From a virus: a stretch of 10,619 nt of DNA. Positions within the stretch are counted from its first letter, which is position 1. Each line of letters begins with the position of its first letter. The position numbers and the translations under genes are program-made. Under the pieces are notes generated by a model. The model was not told where the DNA came from. It saw nothing but the letters and a program-made list of their open reading frames with translations, and searched no databases. Below, piece after piece: positions 292-7,549 of this stretch. Location of the stretch: the UHGV virus genome UHGV-2135452, one strand, 5' to 3'.

Positions 292-412
292 AAAAAAAAT
301 TTTTTTCGAAAGAACTGTTCACACTGTTCACCTTTCTGTTTTCTCCTTTTATTTCAGAGTGATAGATGGTGAATAATGGGTGAAGGGTGAACATTCGATT
401 CTTCACCTCCGG
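292..412. repeat. crr direct repeat 1 (about 120 bp) with TGTTCACC / GGTGAACA type I iterons (alpha binding sites)
   Basis: Begins with an A8T7 tract and contains TGTTCACACTGTTCACC plus inverted GGTGAA copies. Near-identical copy at 473..592, period about 181 bp. Matches P4 crr (two 120-bp direct repeats with type I iterons) downstream of alpha. Confidence 0.7.
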
Positions 413-472
413 CATTCTGCCGGTGTGACTTGTGCAGGGGATTAATTTCCCGTGCTGAAATCACACCGGAAG

Positions 473-592
473 AAAAAAAGTTTTTTTGATTTGATTGTTC
501 ACACTGTTCACCTTTCATTTTTCTCTATTAATTTCAGTGTGATAACGGGTGAATATACGGTGAAGGGTGAACAGTGGATTGTTCACCTTCGG
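473..592. repeat. crr direct repeat 2
   Basis: Second copy of the roughly 120-bp unit with the same iteron arrangement. The inter-repeat segment 420..469 holds a 9-bp inverted repeat, CCGGTGTGA ... TCACACCGG. Confidence 0.7.
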
Positions 593-605
593 GGAATTCA
601 GGGAT

Positions 606-630
606 AAAAAAAGACCGGCAGATGCCGGTC
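606..630 (-). terminator. Rho-independent terminator downstream of alpha
   Basis: On the minus strand: GACCGGCATCTGCCGGTC hairpin followed by TTTTTTT, starting 17 nt after the alpha stop codon. Confidence 0.6.
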
Positions 631-646
631 AGATGAGTCATGATGG

Positions 647-2980
647 TCAGGTTGTTGCAGGGTCGTCACATTTTGGCAGCCAGTCGCCGTAGCTTTCCTC
701 TTTCAGCGTCAGGTTGGTCTGTATCCCCTGTTTGGTATGGCGCTTCTCGTAATTCAGTCCGTATTCCTTCAGCATCACCGGCAGCCCCAGCCCGAACATT
801 TTCAGACTGAGTACATTCCGGTAGCCGTTTGCCTCCATGTAGGCCAGATAGGCGTGATAGAGGTATTTACGGTAATTACGCGGGATGATACTGGCGTTCC
901 CCATATACATGCCGCTGGTCTGCGGCAGGGTTTCCAGATAGCCGATAAAATCAAACGTCGGGTCGGCATCCCGTTTGATGTTCAGTGCCTCGTCTGAGTT
1001 CTGCTGGGACTGAAGCAGTGACCGGGCGAGCATCGGGTCGCTGAACTTCTGCATCAGGTGACGCACGATGACCGCCAGCTCGCGGGTGATTTTGTCCTTA
1101 AGCTGCGGGTCGCGCTCCTGCGGGGCTATCTGTTCCGGGAAGTGAATAATCACCCGCCGGCGTGACACGCCGCCGCTGCGGTCGGTGAAGCGCATCGGGT
1201 TATTGTTCACGGCCAGAATCACCGCCGGGATATGCGTGGAGTACGCATCCCGGTATTTCGGGTCAACGGACACCGCGTCGCCGCCGGTGATGGCCTTGAG
1301 TCCGGCACCGTCGCCGCTCCATTTTTCCTGGTCCGGCAGGCGTATCAGTGAGAAGCCAGTTAACGCGGCACGTTCACGCGGGGATTCCAGCGTCTCGATG
1401 GTGGCCGACGTGGCGTTATCCTCCCCGGCCAGCAGGGTGGCTATTTCGGCCATGATACTTTTGCCGCTGCCGCCGGGACCGGTCACCTCCAGAAAGAGCT
1501 GCCAGTCGTAGCGGTTTGCCAGCACCATAAACAGTGCGGCCAGAATCACGTCGCGTTTTTCCGCACGGCCACCGGCGGCACGGTCAAGCCAGCGCCAGAA
1601 CGCGGGGGCGTGGGTTTCCAGCGTTTCCCCTTCCACCGGCGGGGTGAAATCCACATCGCACAGGGTACGCATCCAGTGTGACGGACTGTGCGGGTGGAAC
1701 GTGCCGTTCTGCGTGTCGAGCACGCCGTTACGAAAGCCAATCAGGCGGCGGGAGGGGGCTTCCTGCTGCGGAATAATCAGCTTCAGGGTGTCCACCACGG
1801 AGGCCACCTTCCCGGAGGAGAACGGCGCGCGCAGACGCTGAAACAGCCCGGCCACATCCCGGGCAAAGTCCTGTGGTGGCAGCACCTTCCAGACACCATT
1901 TTCATAACGGGACAGAAGCTGGCCGTTGGCATCGACCGCGAGCGCCTCGCCGTAATGCTCATAGATACGCATGGCCTTTTCGCTGGTACTCATGGCGGAA
2001 AACTCCGCTTCGCTCATGGTGTCGAACGGGCTTTCAGCCGGTGGCCGGATGGCATCGTAAATGGCCTTACGGGTGGCCTCCCCGCCGTACTGCGTGAAGG
2101 CATCATTCCAGTCACCGAAGACCGGCGGCAGGGCAACAACGCCCTCACACGCATCTGCGGCTGCGGCGGCTTTTGTCTGGCCGTCACCGCTGAGGTCACG
2201 GTCTGCGGCAAGGACAATCTGACAGGCCGGATACTTCTGTCGGGCAAGGCTGGCCAGAGAAAGGAGGTTCACGGAAGAAAGCGCCACCATCACCGTTTCA
2301 CCGGTCAGGTGATGCACGGTAAGTGCGGTCGCGTATCCCTCCGCTATCCACAGACGTTTTCCTGCCTGATTCTGTCCTTCAAGGGTGTGACAGGTGCCCC
2401 TGACCTGTCCGCCTTTCAGGGTGCGCTTACGGCCGTCAGCACTGATTAACTGAAGGTTAACCAGTTCGCCGCTGTCGTCATACAGTGGCACCACAAGGTC
2501 ACCGGCGCGCCAGCTCACGCCACCGGCTCTGTGTGTGCCGGTCAGCATCCGGCATTCCCGGCCGGGAAAGCCCTTGCGGGTCAGGTAGGCGTTACCGGTT
2601 CCGGGACGGGTTTTCGCCATCAGGGTTTGTGCCAGTGCGGCGGCGTTCTTCCGGGCAGCGTCTGTTTCAGCACCGGCGGCAGCCGTCACTGCCGGGTCAG
2701 CCGGGGGCAGGCTGCCGGTCACGGCAGCCACCTTTGCGGCCGCATCGGACGGGGAAACACCAAACACCTTTTCAACCAGTTTCAGGCCGTCACCGGCACC
2801 ACACTGATTGCAGTACCAGGTGCCGCGCCCCTCCCTGTCATCAAAACGGAAGCGGTCACTCCCGCCACAGACCGGACAGGGCTGATGACGGTTTTTCAGC
2901 ACCTGAATCCCCAGCGCCGGGAGAATACGCGGCCAGTGGCCGAGCGCATGGCTGACGGTGGCGGTTACGTTCATTTTCAT
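647..2980 (-). CDS. alpha: P4 alpha-type replication protein (primase / SF3 helicase / origin-binding), 777 aa
   Basis: Length equals P4 alpha. N-terminal zinc-finger CPVCGG...CNQCG, TOPRIM-like AEGYATAL and AADRD, Walker A GPGGSGKS. ATG start; terminator downstream. Confidence 0.95.
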   Translation of the reverse strand: MKMNVTATVSHALGHWPRILPALGIQVLKNRHQPCPVCGGSDRFRFDDREGRGTWYCNQCGAGDGLKLVEKVFGVSPSDAAAKVAAVTGSLPPADPAVTAAAGAETDAARKNAAALAQTLMAKTRPGTGNAYLTRKGFPGRECRMLTGTHRAGGVSWRAGDLVVPLYDDSGELVNLQLISADGRKRTLKGGQVRGTCHTLEGQNQAGKRLWIAEGYATALTVHHLTGETVMVALSSVNLLSLASLARQKYPACQIVLAADRDLSGDGQTKAAAAADACEGVVALPPVFGDWNDAFTQYGGEATRKAIYDAIRPPAESPFDTMSEAEFSAMSTSEKAMRIYEHYGEALAVDANGQLLSRYENGVWKVLPPQDFARDVAGLFQRLRAPFSSGKVASVVDTLKLIIPQQEAPSRRLIGFRNGVLDTQNGTFHPHSPSHWMRTLCDVDFTPPVEGETLETHAPAFWRWLDRAAGGRAEKRDVILAALFMVLANRYDWQLFLEVTGPGGSGKSIMAEIATLLAGEDNATSATIETLESPRERAALTGFSLIRLPDQEKWSGDGAGLKAITGGDAVSVDPKYRDAYSTHIPAVILAVNNNPMRFTDRSGGVSRRRVIIHFPEQIAPQERDPQLKDKITRELAVIVRHLMQKFSDPMLARSLLQSQQNSDEALNIKRDADPTFDFIGYLETLPQTSGMYMGNASIIPRNYRKYLYHAYLAYMEANGYRNVLSLKMFGLGLPVMLKEYGLNYEKRHTKQGIQTNLTLKEESYGDWLPKCDDPATT

Positions 2981-2994
2981 GGTGTTGTTCTCCT

Positions 2995-3315
2995 TCAGTG
3001 CAGTACCGGCGCTTTTATGTGACGGGCACAGAGTTCATCCATCACAACCAGCCCGAGAAAGGACAGCGACGGCGCGGCCTTCAGGGGGCCGGATTCCATT
3101 AAATCTTCCAGCAGGGCACAGGCTATCTGACGCCCTTTTTCCTCACCGTGCTGGCGCAGATAAAAGCCTTCCAGCTCAGCGGCGATGGCAGCCTCCAGTG
3201 ATTCAAGGGTGAGATGCGGGTAGCGGTGCTGACGTTCGCACACGGTCAGCCAGGCACAGGCGACAGCGCGACGGTAAAGGGCTGCGCGTAAGACGGGCGG
3301 TAAGGGGGGGGGCAT
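2995..3315 (-). CDS. Hypothetical protein of the P4-like left operon (epsilon/orf position immediately upstream of alpha), 106 aa
   Basis: ATG at 3315 preceded by GGAGG with 7-nt spacing. Ends 14 nt before the alpha start. Codons 2-4 (PPP) are encoded by a 9-nt G/C homopolymer at 3304..3312. Confidence 0.6.
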
Positions 3316-3450
3316 TTGCTTTCCTCCCTGTGACAGATGACTGCATTCCGTGCCGGTTGCATTAACTGATAAGGCATATCTGCGTCTCCTGAAGACGTGC
3401 GTATCCCTGCGCGAATACGCACATTTAATTTTTCGGGTGTCGTTTTTTAA

Positions 3451-3906
3451 TTACAGATAATTGCGGTAACTGTTATCCGGGGTGATTTCCGGGTCAGGCT
3501 CCGTGCGGGGAATTTCCCGCCATTCCCGCGCCACCGGTGCCGCCCGGCTGACCGGAACAGGGTCCTGCGGGTAAATATCCAGATATTTCTCCCGCCATTT
3601 CTGTAATTCCGGGTCTCCGGCCATTTCTTTCAGTACCGCATGCCGGTTTACGGGGCTGCGTCTGAACAGGTCAGGACGGTCACAGGTAAATTCCCGCAGA
3701 AAACGCCCCAGCGGGATGTCTGTGGTGCGCCCGTCAGCGAGGATACGCACAAGGATACTGAATTTACGGCGGTACGGATTCCAGACAATGTCCGGGCAGC
3801 GGTACGGCATTTCCCACGGAATACCGTCTTCCAGAATGCCGACCACGGCCACATCGGGAAAACCGGCAGAACGGTAAATCTCACCGGGCTGGGGAAAATC
3901 AAACAT
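3451..3906 (-). CDS. Hypothetical protein, 151 aa (same length as P4 orf151; assignment tentative)
   Basis: ATG at 3906 preceded by GGGGAG. Start overlaps the stop of the upstream ORF (ATGTTTGA), suggesting translational coupling within the left operon. Confidence 0.6.
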   Translation of the reverse strand: MFDFPQPGEIYRSAGFPDVAVVGILEDGIPWEMPYRCPDIVWNPYRRKFSILVRILADGRTTDIPLGRFLREFTCDRPDLFRRSPVNRHAVLKEMAGDPELQKWREKYLDIYPQDPVPVSRAAPVAREWREIPRTEPDPEITPDNSYRNYL

Positions 3907-4342
3907 GCGTCCTGTCTCCCCGGTCTTTCTGCTGGGCGAGAAAATCGCGGCACAGGCCTTTGGCTTTCAGCTCATTCAGCACAAAATCAATATCTTCATT
4001 CAGGTAGCTGAAAATATGCGGAATGTAGAGCTGATGCAGGCCGGAGAGTTCACGGTGAATCAAATCACCCCCAACAAACTGGGATACGGCGCTGGCGCGG
4101 TTGAGCTTATGGTAAGCCTCAATGCTGAGGTGTTCACGGGCGTCATGACGTGCTGAGACGGTCTGAGGGGCTTTTTTATTACGCACGGGACACCTCCACC
4201 ACCGGCAGACGGGCAGCAAGGGAGAGCACATAGTCACGGACAAGGGAACGGCGGGCGCTGCGTTCATCACCGGCGACGGTGCGAAGCATGCAGATACGGG
4301 GATGACGGTCTGCGCGACGGACAGCCGCAAACACAAAGACAA
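3899..4342 (-). CDS. Hypothetical protein, first ORF downstream of the immunity region (kil/eta position); N-terminus uncertain
   Basis: Open frame whose stop overlaps the start of the 151-aa ORF. The track start at 4342 is TTG; in-frame ATGs at 4267 and 4231; none has a clear Shine-Dalgarno. Confidence 0.4.
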
Positions 4343-4384
4343 ATTCAGGGTGTGAAGGGGTAAGGGTTGTAGCCATAAGGCAGT

Positions 4385-4430
4385 CTCCTTCGAGTAGCAA
4401 ATAACTGCTATCGCCGGAGTTCCTACGCTC
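4385..4430 (-). promoter_or_regulatory. seqC-like target element of the P4-type immunity system
   Basis: CCTTCGAG (4387..4394) and GTTCCTACGC (4419..4428) are both complementary to blocks in the seqB region. A 9-bp inverted repeat, GCTATCGCC ... GGCGATAGC (4408..4442), encloses the second block. Confidence 0.45.
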
Positions 4431-4439
4431 GATGGCGAT

Positions 4440-4520
4440 AGCCCAGACGGGGGTAGGAATACCGGCCTCGAAGAATACCGGCCAGCCCGGAGGCTGCCCC
4501 GCCTGAGCTACCATTGACTC
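4440..4520 (-). ncRNA. cI: Candidate cI-type immunity RNA (contains seqB); boundaries approximate
   Basis: seqB blocks GTAGGAA (4453..4459) and CTCGAAG (4467..4473) are reverse-complementary to the repeated blocks in seqA and seqC, in nested antiparallel arrangement. Position about 215-245 nt downstream of the predicted P_LE start matches the P4 layout. Confidence 0.45.
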
Positions 4521-4643
4521 AGTGGCATAACATGCGATTGCGAACAGGATCATACCTGCACGGCAAACCACACGCCACACCATAATCTGGCGCTCTGTGG
4601 CGTTGATTGCGACACAAAAAAAGACGCATGGCGCGTCATATGT

Positions 4644-4672
4644 CGCCTTCGAGTTACACGGGTTCCTACGCC
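4644..4672 (-). promoter_or_regulatory. seqA-like target element in the left-operon leader
   Basis: CCTTCGAG (4646..4653) and GTTCCTACGC (4662..4671), direct repeats of the seqC blocks and complementary to seqB. Lies 20-50 nt downstream of the predicted P_LE start. Confidence 0.45.
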
Positions 4673-4700
4673 CGGCTGCCGATTTTGCGGCAGCGGAAAA

Positions 4701-4730
4701 ACTATATCCGCAAATGCCGGAAAAAGGCAA
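4701..4730 (-). promoter_or_regulatory. Candidate sigma70 promoter (P_LE-like) for the immunity/alpha operon
   Basis: On the minus strand: -35 TTGCCT (4730..4725), 18-bp spacer, -10 TATAGT (4706..4701). Sits just after the vis stop and just before seqA. Confidence 0.45.
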
Positions 4731-4765
4731 GCCAGAAAAAGGGACTTTTTGCAGAGCGGGCATCA

Positions 4766-5032
4766 TCATGCGTCGTACCCCCGTTTGCGTCCGGCAATGC
4801 GCCCGGCCATCCATGCGGTGACTTCAGAGTGCAGCCAGGCCACATTTTTACCGCCAAGACTCACCTGCGGCGGAAATTCCCCCTTACGGATGAGTTCATA
4901 GATGGTCGAGCGTGACAGGCCGCACAGGTGCATCACTTCCGGCAGACGTAAAAAACGCTCCTGCGTGATGTCCGGCAGCGGCATCAGTGGCGTAACAGGG
5001 GCGGGAGACGGGGAAGAAAAAACAGCTTGCAT
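4766..5032 (-). CDS. vis: Vis / AlpA-family HTH regulator-excisionase, 88 aa
   Basis: AlpA/Xis-like HTH core [47 protein letters not shown] at 5032 preceded by GAGG. First gene downstream of the P_LL-like promoter, as in P4. Confidence 0.8.
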
Positions 5033-5084
5033 CGGGCTACCTCGTTAATGTCCATACAGCACCGGATAAGTCCGTCCGGCTTCG

Positions 5085-5152
5085 GGTAGCGCTTTATTTT
5101 GTGAATATTTTCAGCAGACGCAACAGGGGGGATTTGTTCCGGCAGCCTTACA
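5085..5152 (-). promoter_or_regulatory. Candidate Delta/Ogr-activated late promoter (P_LL-like)
   Basis: TGT-N12-ACA dyad at 5135..5152 (TGTTCCGGCAGCCTTACA), about 55 bp upstream of an AT-rich -10 region on the minus strand and about 100 bp upstream of vis. Confidence 0.5.
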
Positions 5153-5310
5153 ATGGCTGTGCATTTTTTGTACATCAGCGCCAGATAGCTTTAAAACGCT
5201 CTGGAAGGAGCTGGAAAAAATTATAGTGAAATACAAATTGTTTTTTCTTATTTATTTCAGTGAATTAATAAAAATAAAAAGTAATAAACAGCACAAAAAG
5301 CCCATCAACG

Positions 5311-5339
5311 GGTGAACAGTGGTGAACAGAGGTGAACAG
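5311..5339. other. ori1-like cluster of three 10-bp-phased type I iterons (GGTGAACAG x3) in an AT-rich tract
   Basis: GGTGAACAGT GGTGAACAGA GGTGAACAGT at 5311..5340. Same octamer as the crr iterons. Flanked by a very AT-rich segment at 5220..5310. About 4.8 kb from crr, consistent with P4 ori1-crr spacing. Confidence 0.55.
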
Positions 5340-5417
5340 TAAAATATAAAAAAACAAACAGTAAGCCGGTTTTTCCTGCGACCTTTTCCTGGCTTGCCGG
5401 TCTGAGGATGAGTCTCC

Positions 5418-5482
5418 TGTGTCAGGGCTGGCACATCTGCAATGCGTCGTGTTGCTGTCCGGTGTACGTCACAATTTTCTCA
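5418..5482 (+). promoter_or_regulatory. Candidate Delta/Ogr-activated late promoter (P_sid-like)
   Basis: TGT-N12-ACA dyad at 5418..5435 (TGTGTCAGGGCTGGCACA), about 90 bp upstream of the sid ATG and divergent from the P_LL-like dyad. Confidence 0.55.
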
Positions 5483-5507
5483 ACCTGAAGTGACGAGGAG
5501 CCGGAAA

Positions 5508-6242
5508 ATGTCTGACAACACCATCCCTGAATATCTGCAACCCGCACTGGCACAACTGGAAAAGGCCAGAGCCGCTCATCTTGAGAACGCCCGCCTGATG
5601 GATGAGACCGTCACGGCCATTGAACGGGCAGAGCAGGAAAAAAATGCGCTGACGCAGGCCGACGGAAATGACGCTGACGACTGGCGCACGGCCTTTCGTG
5701 CAGCCGGTGGTGTCCTGAGCGACGAGCTGAAACAGCGCCACATTGAGCGCGTGGCACGCCGGGAGCTGGTACAGGAATATGACAATCTGGCCGTGGTGCT
5801 GAATTTCGAACGTGAACGCCTGAAAGGGGCGTGTGACAGCACGGCCACCGCCTACCGGAAGGCACATCATCACCTTCTGAGTCTGTATGCAGAGCATGAG
5901 CTGGAACACGCCCTGAATGAAACCTGTGAGGCGCTTGTCCGGGCAATGCATCTGAGCATTCTGGTACAGGAAAATCCGCTCGCCAACACCACCGGCCATC
6001 AGGGCTACGTCGCACCGGAAAAGGCTGTCATGCAGCAGGTGAAATCATCGCTGGAACAGAAAATTAAACAGATGCAAATCAGCCTCACCGGCGAGCCGGT
6101 TCTCCGGCTGACCGGACTGTCAGCGGCAACACTCCCGCACATGGATTATGAGGTGGCAGGCACACCGGCACAGCGCAAGGTGTGGCAGGACAAAATAGAC
6201 CAGCAGGGAGCAGAGCTGAAGGCCAGAGGACTGCTGTCATGA
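5508..6242 (+). CDS. sid: Sid capsid size determination (external scaffold) protein, 244 aa
   Basis: Begins MSDNTIPEYLQPALAQLEKARAAHLENARLMDETV, recognised as P4 Sid. GAGGAG 7 nt upstream of ATG 5508. The track ORF starts earlier at 5442 but has no Shine-Dalgarno. Stop overlaps the delta start (ATGA). Confidence 0.9.
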   Translation: MSDNTIPEYLQPALAQLEKARAAHLENARLMDETVTAIERAEQEKNALTQADGNDADDWRTAFRAAGGVLSDELKQRHIERVARRELVQEYDNLAVVLNFERERLKGACDSTATAYRKAHHHLLSLYAEHELEHALNETCEALVRAMHLSILVQENPLANTTGHQGYVAPEKAVMQQVKSSLEQKIKQMQISLTGEPVLRLTGLSAATLPHMDYEVAGTPAQRKVWQDKIDQQGAELKARGLLS

Positions 6243-6739
6243 TTTACTGCCCGTCGTGTGGACATGTTGCTCACACCCGTCGCGCACATTTCATGGACGA
6301 TGGCACCAAGATAATGATTGCACAGTGCCGGAATATTTATTGCTCTGCGACATTTGAAGCGAGTGAAAGCTTTTTCTCTGACTGTAAAGATTCAGGAATG
6401 GAATACATTTCAGGCAAACAGAGATACCGCGATTCACTGACGTCAGCCTCCGGCAGCATGAAGCGCCCGAAAAGAATGCTTGTTACCGGATATTGTTGTC
6501 GGAGATGTAAAGGCCTTGCGCTGTCAAGAACATCGCGGGGTCTGTCTCAGGAAGTCACCGAGCGTTTTTATGTGTGCACGGATCCGGGCTGTGGTCTGGT
6601 GTTTAAAACGCTTCAGACCATCACCCGCTTCATTGTCCGCCCGGTCACGCCGGACGAACTGGCAGAACGCCTGCATGAAAAACAGGAACTGCCGCCAGTA
6701 CGGTTAAAAACACAATCATATTCGCTGCGTCTGGAATGA
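6239..6739 (+). CDS. delta: Delta late transcription activator (tandem Ogr-like zinc finger), 166 aa
   Basis: Begins MIYCPSCGH. Two C4 zinc-finger units (CPSCGH...CRNIYC and CRRCKG...CTDPGC). Length equals P4 Delta. The track ORF starts at 6182, but ATG 6239 overlapping the sid stop is the likely start. Confidence 0.9.
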   Translation: MIYCPSCGHVAHTRRAHFMDDGTKIMIAQCRNIYCSATFEASESFFSDCKDSGMEYISGKQRYRDSLTSASGSMKRPKRMLVTGYCCRRCKGLALSRTSRGLSQEVTERFYVCTDPGCGLVFKTLQTITRFIVRPVTPDELAERLHEKQELPPVRLKTQSYSLRLE

Positions 6740-6812
6740 GGGCTGCCGGTTAACACCGGCCGTCGCCACACACCGTATTTTTATTCTTCAGCATGATGAG
6801 AAAGAGATAACG

Positions 6813-7385
6813 ATGGAAAGCACAGCCTTACAGCAGGCCTTTGACACCTGTCAGAATAACAAAGCAGCATGGCTGCAACGCAAAAATGAGCTGGCAGCGG
6901 CCGAACAGGAATACCTGCGGCTTCTGTCAGGAGAAGGCAGAAACGTCAGTCGCCTGGACGAATTACGCAATATTATCGAAGTCAGAAAATGGCAGGTGAA
7001 TCAGGCCGCCGGTCGTTATATTCGTTCGCATGAAGCCGTTCAGCACATCAGCATCCGCGACCGGCTGAATGATTTTATGCAGCAGCACGGCACAGCACTG
7101 GCGGCGGCACTGGCACCGGAGCTGATGGGCTACAGTGAGCTGACGGCCATTGCCCGAAACTGTGCCATACAGCGTGCCACAGATGCCCTGCGTGAAGCCC
7201 TTCTGTCCTGGCTTGCGAAGGGGGAAAAAATTAATTATTCCGCACAGGATAGCGACATTTTAACGACCATCGGATTCAGGCCTGACGCGGCTTCGGTGGA
7301 CGACAGCCGTGAAAAATTCACCCCTGCGCAGAACATGATTTTTTCGCGTAAAAGTGCGCAACTGGCATCACGTCAGTCTGTGTAA
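6813..7385 (+). CDS. psu: Psu polarity suppression / capsid decoration protein, 190 aa
   Basis: Length and sequence (MESTALQQAFDTCQNNKAAW ... ASRQSV) as recalled for P4 Psu. Last gene of the sid operon, immediately before cos. Confidence 0.9.
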   Translation: MESTALQQAFDTCQNNKAAWLQRKNELAAAEQEYLRLLSGEGRNVSRLDELRNIIEVRKWQVNQAAGRYIRSHEAVQHISIRDRLNDFMQQHGTALAAALAPELMGYSELTAIARNCAIQRATDALREALLSWLAKGEKINYSAQDSDILTTIGFRPDAASVDDSREKFTPAQNMIFSRKSAQLASRQSV

Positions 7386-7420
7386 AATTTCCCGAAAATC
7401 CGCCTGTTTTTACTGAAAAA

Positions 7421-7447
7421 AGCCATGCATCGATAAGGTGCATGGCT
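7421..7447 (+). terminator. Candidate terminator hairpin downstream of psu
   Basis: AGCCATGCA-TCGATAAGG-TGCATGGCT stem-loop preceded by an A-run and followed by a short T-rich stretch (TTTG). The T-tract is weak. Confidence 0.35.
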
Positions 7448-7549
7448 TTGCATGCGTTTCCCTGCCTCATTTTCTGCAGACCGCGCCATTCCCGGCGCGG
7501 TCTGAGCGTGTCAGTGCAACTGCATTAAAACCGCCCCGCAAAGCGTGCG

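Follow-up and report, generated by a model that had tools for sequence, protein, structure and literature searches.

Iteron-type replication origins of plasmids and phages carry repeated initiator sites, phased at approximately 10 bp, beside AT-rich DNA. The origin of phage P4 is similarly organised, but differs from the general pattern in being bipartite, comprised of ori1 and the distant crr, and in being served by one protein that is primase, helicase and binding protein and is not known to need DnaA. This protein, alpha, binds the type I iterons of both ori1 and crr and, as a helicase and primase, starts bidirectional replication at ori1, with Cnr acting as its antagonist. According to Tocchetti et al. 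(J Virol 1999, 73:7308), the minimal ori1 is reportedly 123 bp in length, consisting of six iterons and a 35 bp AT-rich region, and the loss of one or more iterons, or an insertion of 6 or 10 bp, is said to have inactivated this oriI. A second site in alpha, termed ori2, reportedly can work with crr but is silenced by Cnr (Tocchetti et al., Virology 1998, 245:344). Besides these two studies, P4 replication is the subject of Ziegelin et al. 1993, Ziegelin & Lanka 1995 and Yeo et al. 2002. The GenBank record of P4 (X51522) annotates a rep_origin at <9086..9809, with six 'ori type 1 repeats' (9310-9413) and three 'ori type 2 repeats'; the type 1 repeats are located at 9310, 9320 and 9331 in direct orientation, at 9353 in inverted orientation, and at 9396 and 9406 in direct orientation again. 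A full-text literature search for papers describing ori1 iterons returned none.

The DNA analysed here, referred to as the window, is a stretch of 10,619 nt from the viral genome UHGV-2135452. Positions 293-7549 were found by megablast against phage records to be 97% identical to positions 4291-11624 of P4, a span that starts with crr, takes in alpha, the immunity region, sid, delta and psu, and extends to the right end of P4. The other 3 kb of the window has no match to P4; in near-identical Escherichia coli prophages, this non-P4 3 kb contains a SIR2-family gene, an integrase and ssrA. The window is therefore identified as a P4-like satellite prophage adjoining ssrA.

Three copies of GGTGAACAG, the complement of TGTTCACC, are found without mismatch on the plus strand of the window, at 5311-5319, 5321-5329 and 5331-5339, both by pattern search and by direct reading, and were aligned with those of P4 and its near-identical relatives; their start-to-start interval is exactly 10 bp. 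When up to one mismatch was allowed, the motif occurred at nine sites in the window, comprising this triplet and six sites in 315-587, compared with 2.19 expected by chance, and none of 200 shuffled sequences reached nine. To the left of the iterons (5311..5339) lies an AT-rich tract (5220..5310), recognised from its GC content and free energy and homologous to approximately 9210-9309 of P4, and to the right of the last iteron is a conserved A-rich flank, TAAAATATAAAAAAACAAACAG (5340..5365), which is identical in P4. The GC content of 100 bp windows is 0.22-0.30 across 5200-5349, and 0.52-0.60 to either side. A first-pass annotation of this sequence had described an origin-like triplet of iterons at exact 10 bp phasing following a strongly AT-rich stretch, and both the phasing and the base composition were borne out.

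Positions 5050-5520 of the window match 9048-9595 of P4 at 91.5% identity across 471 nt, the flanks being identical over long stretches, placing the triplet under the annotated P4 rep_origin and at the homologous location. Like P4 ori1, it sits between the late promoter on the ORF88/alpA side and sid. By position as well as by sequence, the triplet is the homologue of P4 ori1, a known and already annotated element, not a new one. The two sites have in common their position between ORF88 and sid, identical or nearly identical flanks, the iteron sequence itself, an alpha initiator that is 99% identical and the same partner, crr, at the same distance: 4,719 bp separate the end of crr from the first iteron in the window, and 4,720 bp in P4, in agreement with an earlier remark that the spacing of about 4.8 kb was that of P4. 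However, the window has three iterons where P4 has six, is without the inverted iteron and the 35 bp AT-rich spacer, both part of 76 bp present in P4, and has unrelated sequence in place of the three type 2 repeats. As it departs from the six-iteron layout and lacks the internal spacer, the site is better classed as a deletion derivative of ori1 than as a standard member.

The native layout was defined through a search for a two-iteron pattern over one genome per GTDB species, which yielded 63 loci, approximately 20 of them from Enterobacteriaceae; 18 of these were aligned, drawn from Phytobacter, Kluyvera, Enterobacter, Buttiauxella, Klebsiella, Raoultella, Citrobacter, Tenebrionibacter, Superficieibacter, Cedecea and Pseudescherichia. 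The full array is found in P4 and in all 18 of these relatives from other enterobacterial species, and P4, the 18 relatives and three assemblies with an alpha identical to that of the window each have at least six iterons. Their order is three direct iterons, one inverted iteron, the 35 bp AT-rich spacer and two further direct iterons, and in a census of all loci the start-to-start spacing was 10-11-21(inverted)-44-10 in every P4-like locus examined other than the window, which has three direct iterons spaced 10-10 and from which the spacer has been deleted. The six-iteron form was considered as a possible P4-specific insertion, and this was ruled out by its being shared by elements from about a dozen genera. 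Some P4-like origins from IMG/VR and metagenome contigs have seven or eight iterons (L065-L076, L080, L082, L084, L085, L094); the extra 10 bp units in these elements are always in the left direct cluster, and the 11-21-44-10 remainder is unchanged. The addition of one or two 10 bp units on the left side is the sole natural variation seen. The left iteron cluster behaves, in this respect, like a slippage-prone microsatellite. So rigid a spacing rule could be used both to annotate P4-like satellites and to flag decayed ones.

The type 2 repeats are distributed differently. At the position of the three 10 bp repeats of P4 (9176-9205), the window has unrelated sequence of similar length (5177-5215), which contains an imperfect palindrome (5181-5204), and the same replacement is shared by relatives whose six-iteron origin is complete. 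In other genera, this position is occupied by four or five TGGCAA(A/T)-type motifs with a spacing of roughly 10-12 bp. Since relatives with a complete origin are also without the P4 repeats, and other genera have different ones, the type 2 repeats are probably not defining for ori1; the arrangement resembles a repeat cassette specific to each lineage, set next to an iteron core that is conserved.

Pairwise alignment with P4 places a single 76 bp gap in the window, equal in length to the interval between iterons 2 and 5. The P4 array reads GGTGAACAGT GGTGAACAGAC GGTGAACAG TCATTACTGCGA TTGTTCACC, then the 35 bp AT-rich spacer, then GGTGAACAGA GGTGAACAG; that of the window reads GGTGAACAGT GGTGAACAGA GGTGAACAG, with the 30-mer GGTGAACAGTGGTGAACAGAGGTGAACAGT across the junction. 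Given that the gap corresponds to the distance between iterons 2 and 5, the first iteron of the window is P4 iteron 1, the second is iterons 2 and 5 fused into one, and the third is iteron 6. Relatives have two copies of the 11 bp direct repeat TGGTGAACAGA, one at iteron 2 and the other, 76 bp away, at iteron 5, and the deletion extends exactly from one copy to the other; the sole remaining copy, on the plus strand of the window at 5320..5330, marks the junction at which relatives carry the extra 76 bp. The lost sequence comprises iteron 3 and the inverted iteron, together with the 35 bp AT-rich spacer and one of the two copies of the iteron 2/5 repeat. Replication slippage or short-homology recombination between the copies of TGGTGAACAGA is the likely cause. 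The exact 10 bp phasing is itself a product of the 2/5 fusion, as the second interval in the native array is 11 bp. The origin-like character assigned to the triplet in the first-pass annotation stands as far as homology with P4 ori1 is concerned, but the regular triplet is a deletion scar and not a native design.

The deletion is recent and private to the window. An E. coli prophage that is 99.5% identical to the window, in NZ_AP029605.1, has the 76 bp present. Three further assemblies, GCA_048793145.1, GCA_000176555.2 and GCA_964049745.1, encode exactly the 777 aa alpha of the window, and across 5030-5520 they are 100% identical to it outside the 76 bp that they keep; over 8.9 kb, GCA_048793145.1 (L098) differs from the window by two mismatches and one gap besides the deletion. 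All four of these prophages adjoin ssrA and carry a SIR2 defence gene, as the window does, and NZ_AP029605.1 has a single base different from the window in the ORF88-sid intergenic region, the other three having none outside the deletion; unlike the window, all four retain the 76 bp and, with it, the full set of six iterons. Two of the three assemblies that share the identical alpha (L098, at approximately 3618-3625, and L100) have TGTTAACC in place of TGTTCACC as the inverted iteron, a C-to-A change that hits an otherwise near-invariant site.

The short allele was not found in any of 5,426 complete E. coli genomes searched with a 111 nt query across the site: 897 matched, none of them in one piece. 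Even the best-ranked match was a two-piece alignment over 187 nt, corresponding to the 111 nt of the query and the 76 bp, and therefore no complete E. coli genome has the short allele. Likewise, the window junction was present in none of 95 loci from GTDB representatives, IMG/VR and metagenomes. A search for three iterons at 10 bp spacing, which returned nine loci from IMG/VR and 21 from metagenome contigs, also did not recover the junction; the P4-like matches among these loci all keep the inverted iteron, the spacer and the right-hand pair, and the remaining matches are unrelated tandem repeats or other replicons.

Conservation across the region was calculated as the majority-residue frequency per column in the 19 sequences other than the window, namely P4 and the 18 relatives. 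It is highest in the 76 bp that the window has lost (0.90), with the 35 bp spacer alone at 0.89, the right flank downstream of the last iteron at 0.88 across genera and the retained iterons at 0.87, and lowest in the upstream AT-rich tract (0.63). The spacer has a near-invariant core, CTTACTGTATTACTTAT, and conservation there therefore goes beyond base composition. The tract at 5220-5310, which had been emphasised earlier, is the least conserved part of the region, and it is the conserved spacer that has disappeared. In nearest-neighbour calculations, the least stable 30-mers of the region are those of the retained upstream tract (5230-5290), at approximately -29 kcal/mol across 5250-5290, and those of the deleted spacer have values of -31 to -33 kcal/mol; easily melted DNA therefore still adjoins the remaining iterons.

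The other components of the replication system are intact. The alpha gene (647..2980, minus strand) encodes a 777 aa primase, helicase and origin-binding initiator, 768 of 776 residues of which are identical to P4 alpha; at the nucleotide level, 36 of 2,334 positions differ from P4, and 62% of 36 nt windows are identical. Residues 671-770 match PDB entry 1KA8, which was deposited under the name of a P4-specific DNA primase and is the origin-binding domain, with an E value of 1e-63. The negative regulator of alpha, cnr (ORF106; 2995..3315, minus strand), shares 104 of 106 residues with P4 ORF106, and the Pfam family DUF5375 is detected on the cnr of identical relatives. The cis-required replication region, crr (293..592, plus strand), aligns with 4291-4590 of P4 and consists of two 120 bp direct repeats (293-412 and 473-592) bearing type I iterons, with every annotated type 1 repeat unchanged from P4. 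The suggestion that triplet and crr share an octamer is supported, the same 9-mer being present in the crr repeats across 293-592.

The iteron was also seen outside the Enterobacteriaceae. In Oceanisphaera sediminis (L024) and in an IMG/VR sequence (L070), more distant alpha homologues that are 50-59% identical over the C-terminal half are followed, just past the 3' end of the gene, by GGTGAACAG iterons, a placement like that of crr. The same motif is found, with a layout similar to that of ori1, at 1720-1870 of an uncultured Clostridia metagenome-assembled genome (L062) and in two metagenome contigs (L077 and L081). The Clostridia-type array consists of one direct iteron, three direct iterons at 10 bp, one inverted iteron, a spacer and two direct iterons; it lies directly downstream of a 546 aa ORF with a VapE-like/DUF5906 helicase domain and adjoins an AbiEii toxin-antitoxin pair. 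No pairwise similarity was found between this 546 aa ORF and P4 alpha, and the element may represent an independent replicon that employs the same motif.

The array is flanked by two dyads of the form TGT-N12-ACA, as had been noted from the sequence. That on the ORF88 side (5135..5152), a pattern match, is presumably the Delta/Ogr activator site of the leftward late promoter PLL, and that upstream of sid (5418..5435), a pattern match identical in P4, is taken to be the Psid activator site, at about -55. A third match lies 38 bp downstream of the sid-side dyad, at 5456..5473, and may be the second Delta site reported for Psid, at about -18. Six such dyads are present in the whole window, a number weakly above chance, as seven of 200 shuffled sequences reached six. 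A scan of 5000-5550 for the sigma-70 consensus found no promoter-like site, a result to be expected with activator-dependent late promoters and therefore of no informative value. The earlier proposal that replication initiation and late transcription control are interleaved at this site holds for the window, and is equally true of P4 itself.

As PMC4234260 states at second hand, alpha uses a winged-helix domain to bind the origin repeats, after which it unwinds the DNA and primes synthesis. On the intact form of the element, the C-terminal winged-helix domain of alpha binds the six type I iterons, which are roughly in helical phase, as well as the iterons of crr 4.7 kb away, before unwinding the DNA and priming bidirectional replication under the restraint of Cnr. 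In the window, deletion between the copies of TGGTGAACAGA has fused this array into three in-phase iterons, with the inverted iteron and the conserved spacer gone. The remnant probably still binds alpha, yet is inactive or strongly impaired as an origin, a reading that draws on the reported deletion mapping, on how strictly the array is conserved and on the fact that its best conserved half is gone. Integration, excision and packaging could still take place in such an element, but its amplification would be poor unless ori2 inside alpha were to take over; replication through oriII is possible, and with cnr intact ori2 may not compensate. The locus has little significance beyond its correct annotation as a textbook P4 origin with a private, probably disabling mutation. 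Against such impairment, three perfect, in-phase putative alpha sites are left, with easily melted AT-rich DNA on both sides, and weak or alternative initiation is therefore possible. That the short array might still be a working origin, three alpha sites with their AT-rich flanks and an intact crr being enough in vivo, seems rather unlikely. The iterons are indeed perfect and in helical phase, the window has kept both the most meltable DNA (5230-5290) and the conserved right flank, there is no damage to alpha, cnr or crr, and iteron number varies naturally from six to eight in P4-like elements. That variation, however, is confined to gains on the left side, and no other P4-like element examined is without the inverted iteron, the spacer or the right-hand pair; moreover, the deleted part is the best conserved, the allele is private, and the loss of even one iteron is reportedly inactivating. 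It is quite improbable that a three-iteron satellite replicates or persists without the inverted iteron and spacer, or that loss of ori1 has been selected, locking the satellite into the chromosome and shifting replication to ori2. Were three iterons to support replication, the six-iteron architecture, conserved in at least a dozen enterobacterial genera, would not be strictly required in vivo. The short allele and its near-identical six-iteron relatives would together provide a ready natural control for testing what ori1 requires.

The short allele might alternatively be an artefact of sequencing or assembly, with a six-iteron array in the real genome, as the allele was found nowhere else, there is hardly any other difference between the window and assemblies in which the 76 bp is present, and the end points of the deletion lie in repeated sequence. 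Nevertheless, the shared repeat, at 11 bp, is far below the k-mer and read lengths at which assemblers collapse repeats, for which reason assembly collapse is judged unlikely; a clean loss of 76 bp is also atypical of read error, and precise end points from repeat to repeat are the expected product of a genuine slippage deletion. An artefact is accordingly considered very doubtful. The position of the repeats between two TGT-N12-ACA dyads might be taken to mean that they serve mainly in transcriptional control of the divergent late promoters and not as an origin. This is barely credible, however, as the same 9-mer is the annotated origin repeat of P4 and also fills crr, the array is conserved as a unit in P4-like elements that themselves encode the initiator recognising it, and nothing found here indicates a promoter function. 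The preferred reading of the locus is still that of an ori1 remnant, probably impaired by a genuine deletion.

Elsewhere in the window, Rfam matches include the C4 antisense RNA, of the P4 CI immunity RNA family, at 4431-4518, and isrK with the c4 a1/b1 target sites at 4617-4694 and 4655-4707, all on the minus strand. These immunity-region RNA matches are all intact, consistent with a functional immunity region. A further Rfam match, to the 3' part of tmRNA (10537-10619, minus strand), is one inside which the window ends. Both the integrase (9141-10352, minus strand) and the insertion site differ from those of P4, which integrates at leuX, and bases 8-129 are similar to the tmRNA-pseudogene/attP region known from other phages. 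The SIR2-family gene (7756-9113, minus strand) occupies a defence hotspot between psu/cos and the integrase. A T run near 8249 is one T short, and the resulting frameshift divides the gene into two ORFs, of 289 and 137 aa. It is intact in NZ_AP029605.1, where it encodes 452 aa, and in GCA_000176555.2. The 289 aa product is also found in GCA_048793145.1 and GCA_964049745.1, and the frameshift is therefore a trait of the lineage, not private to the window.
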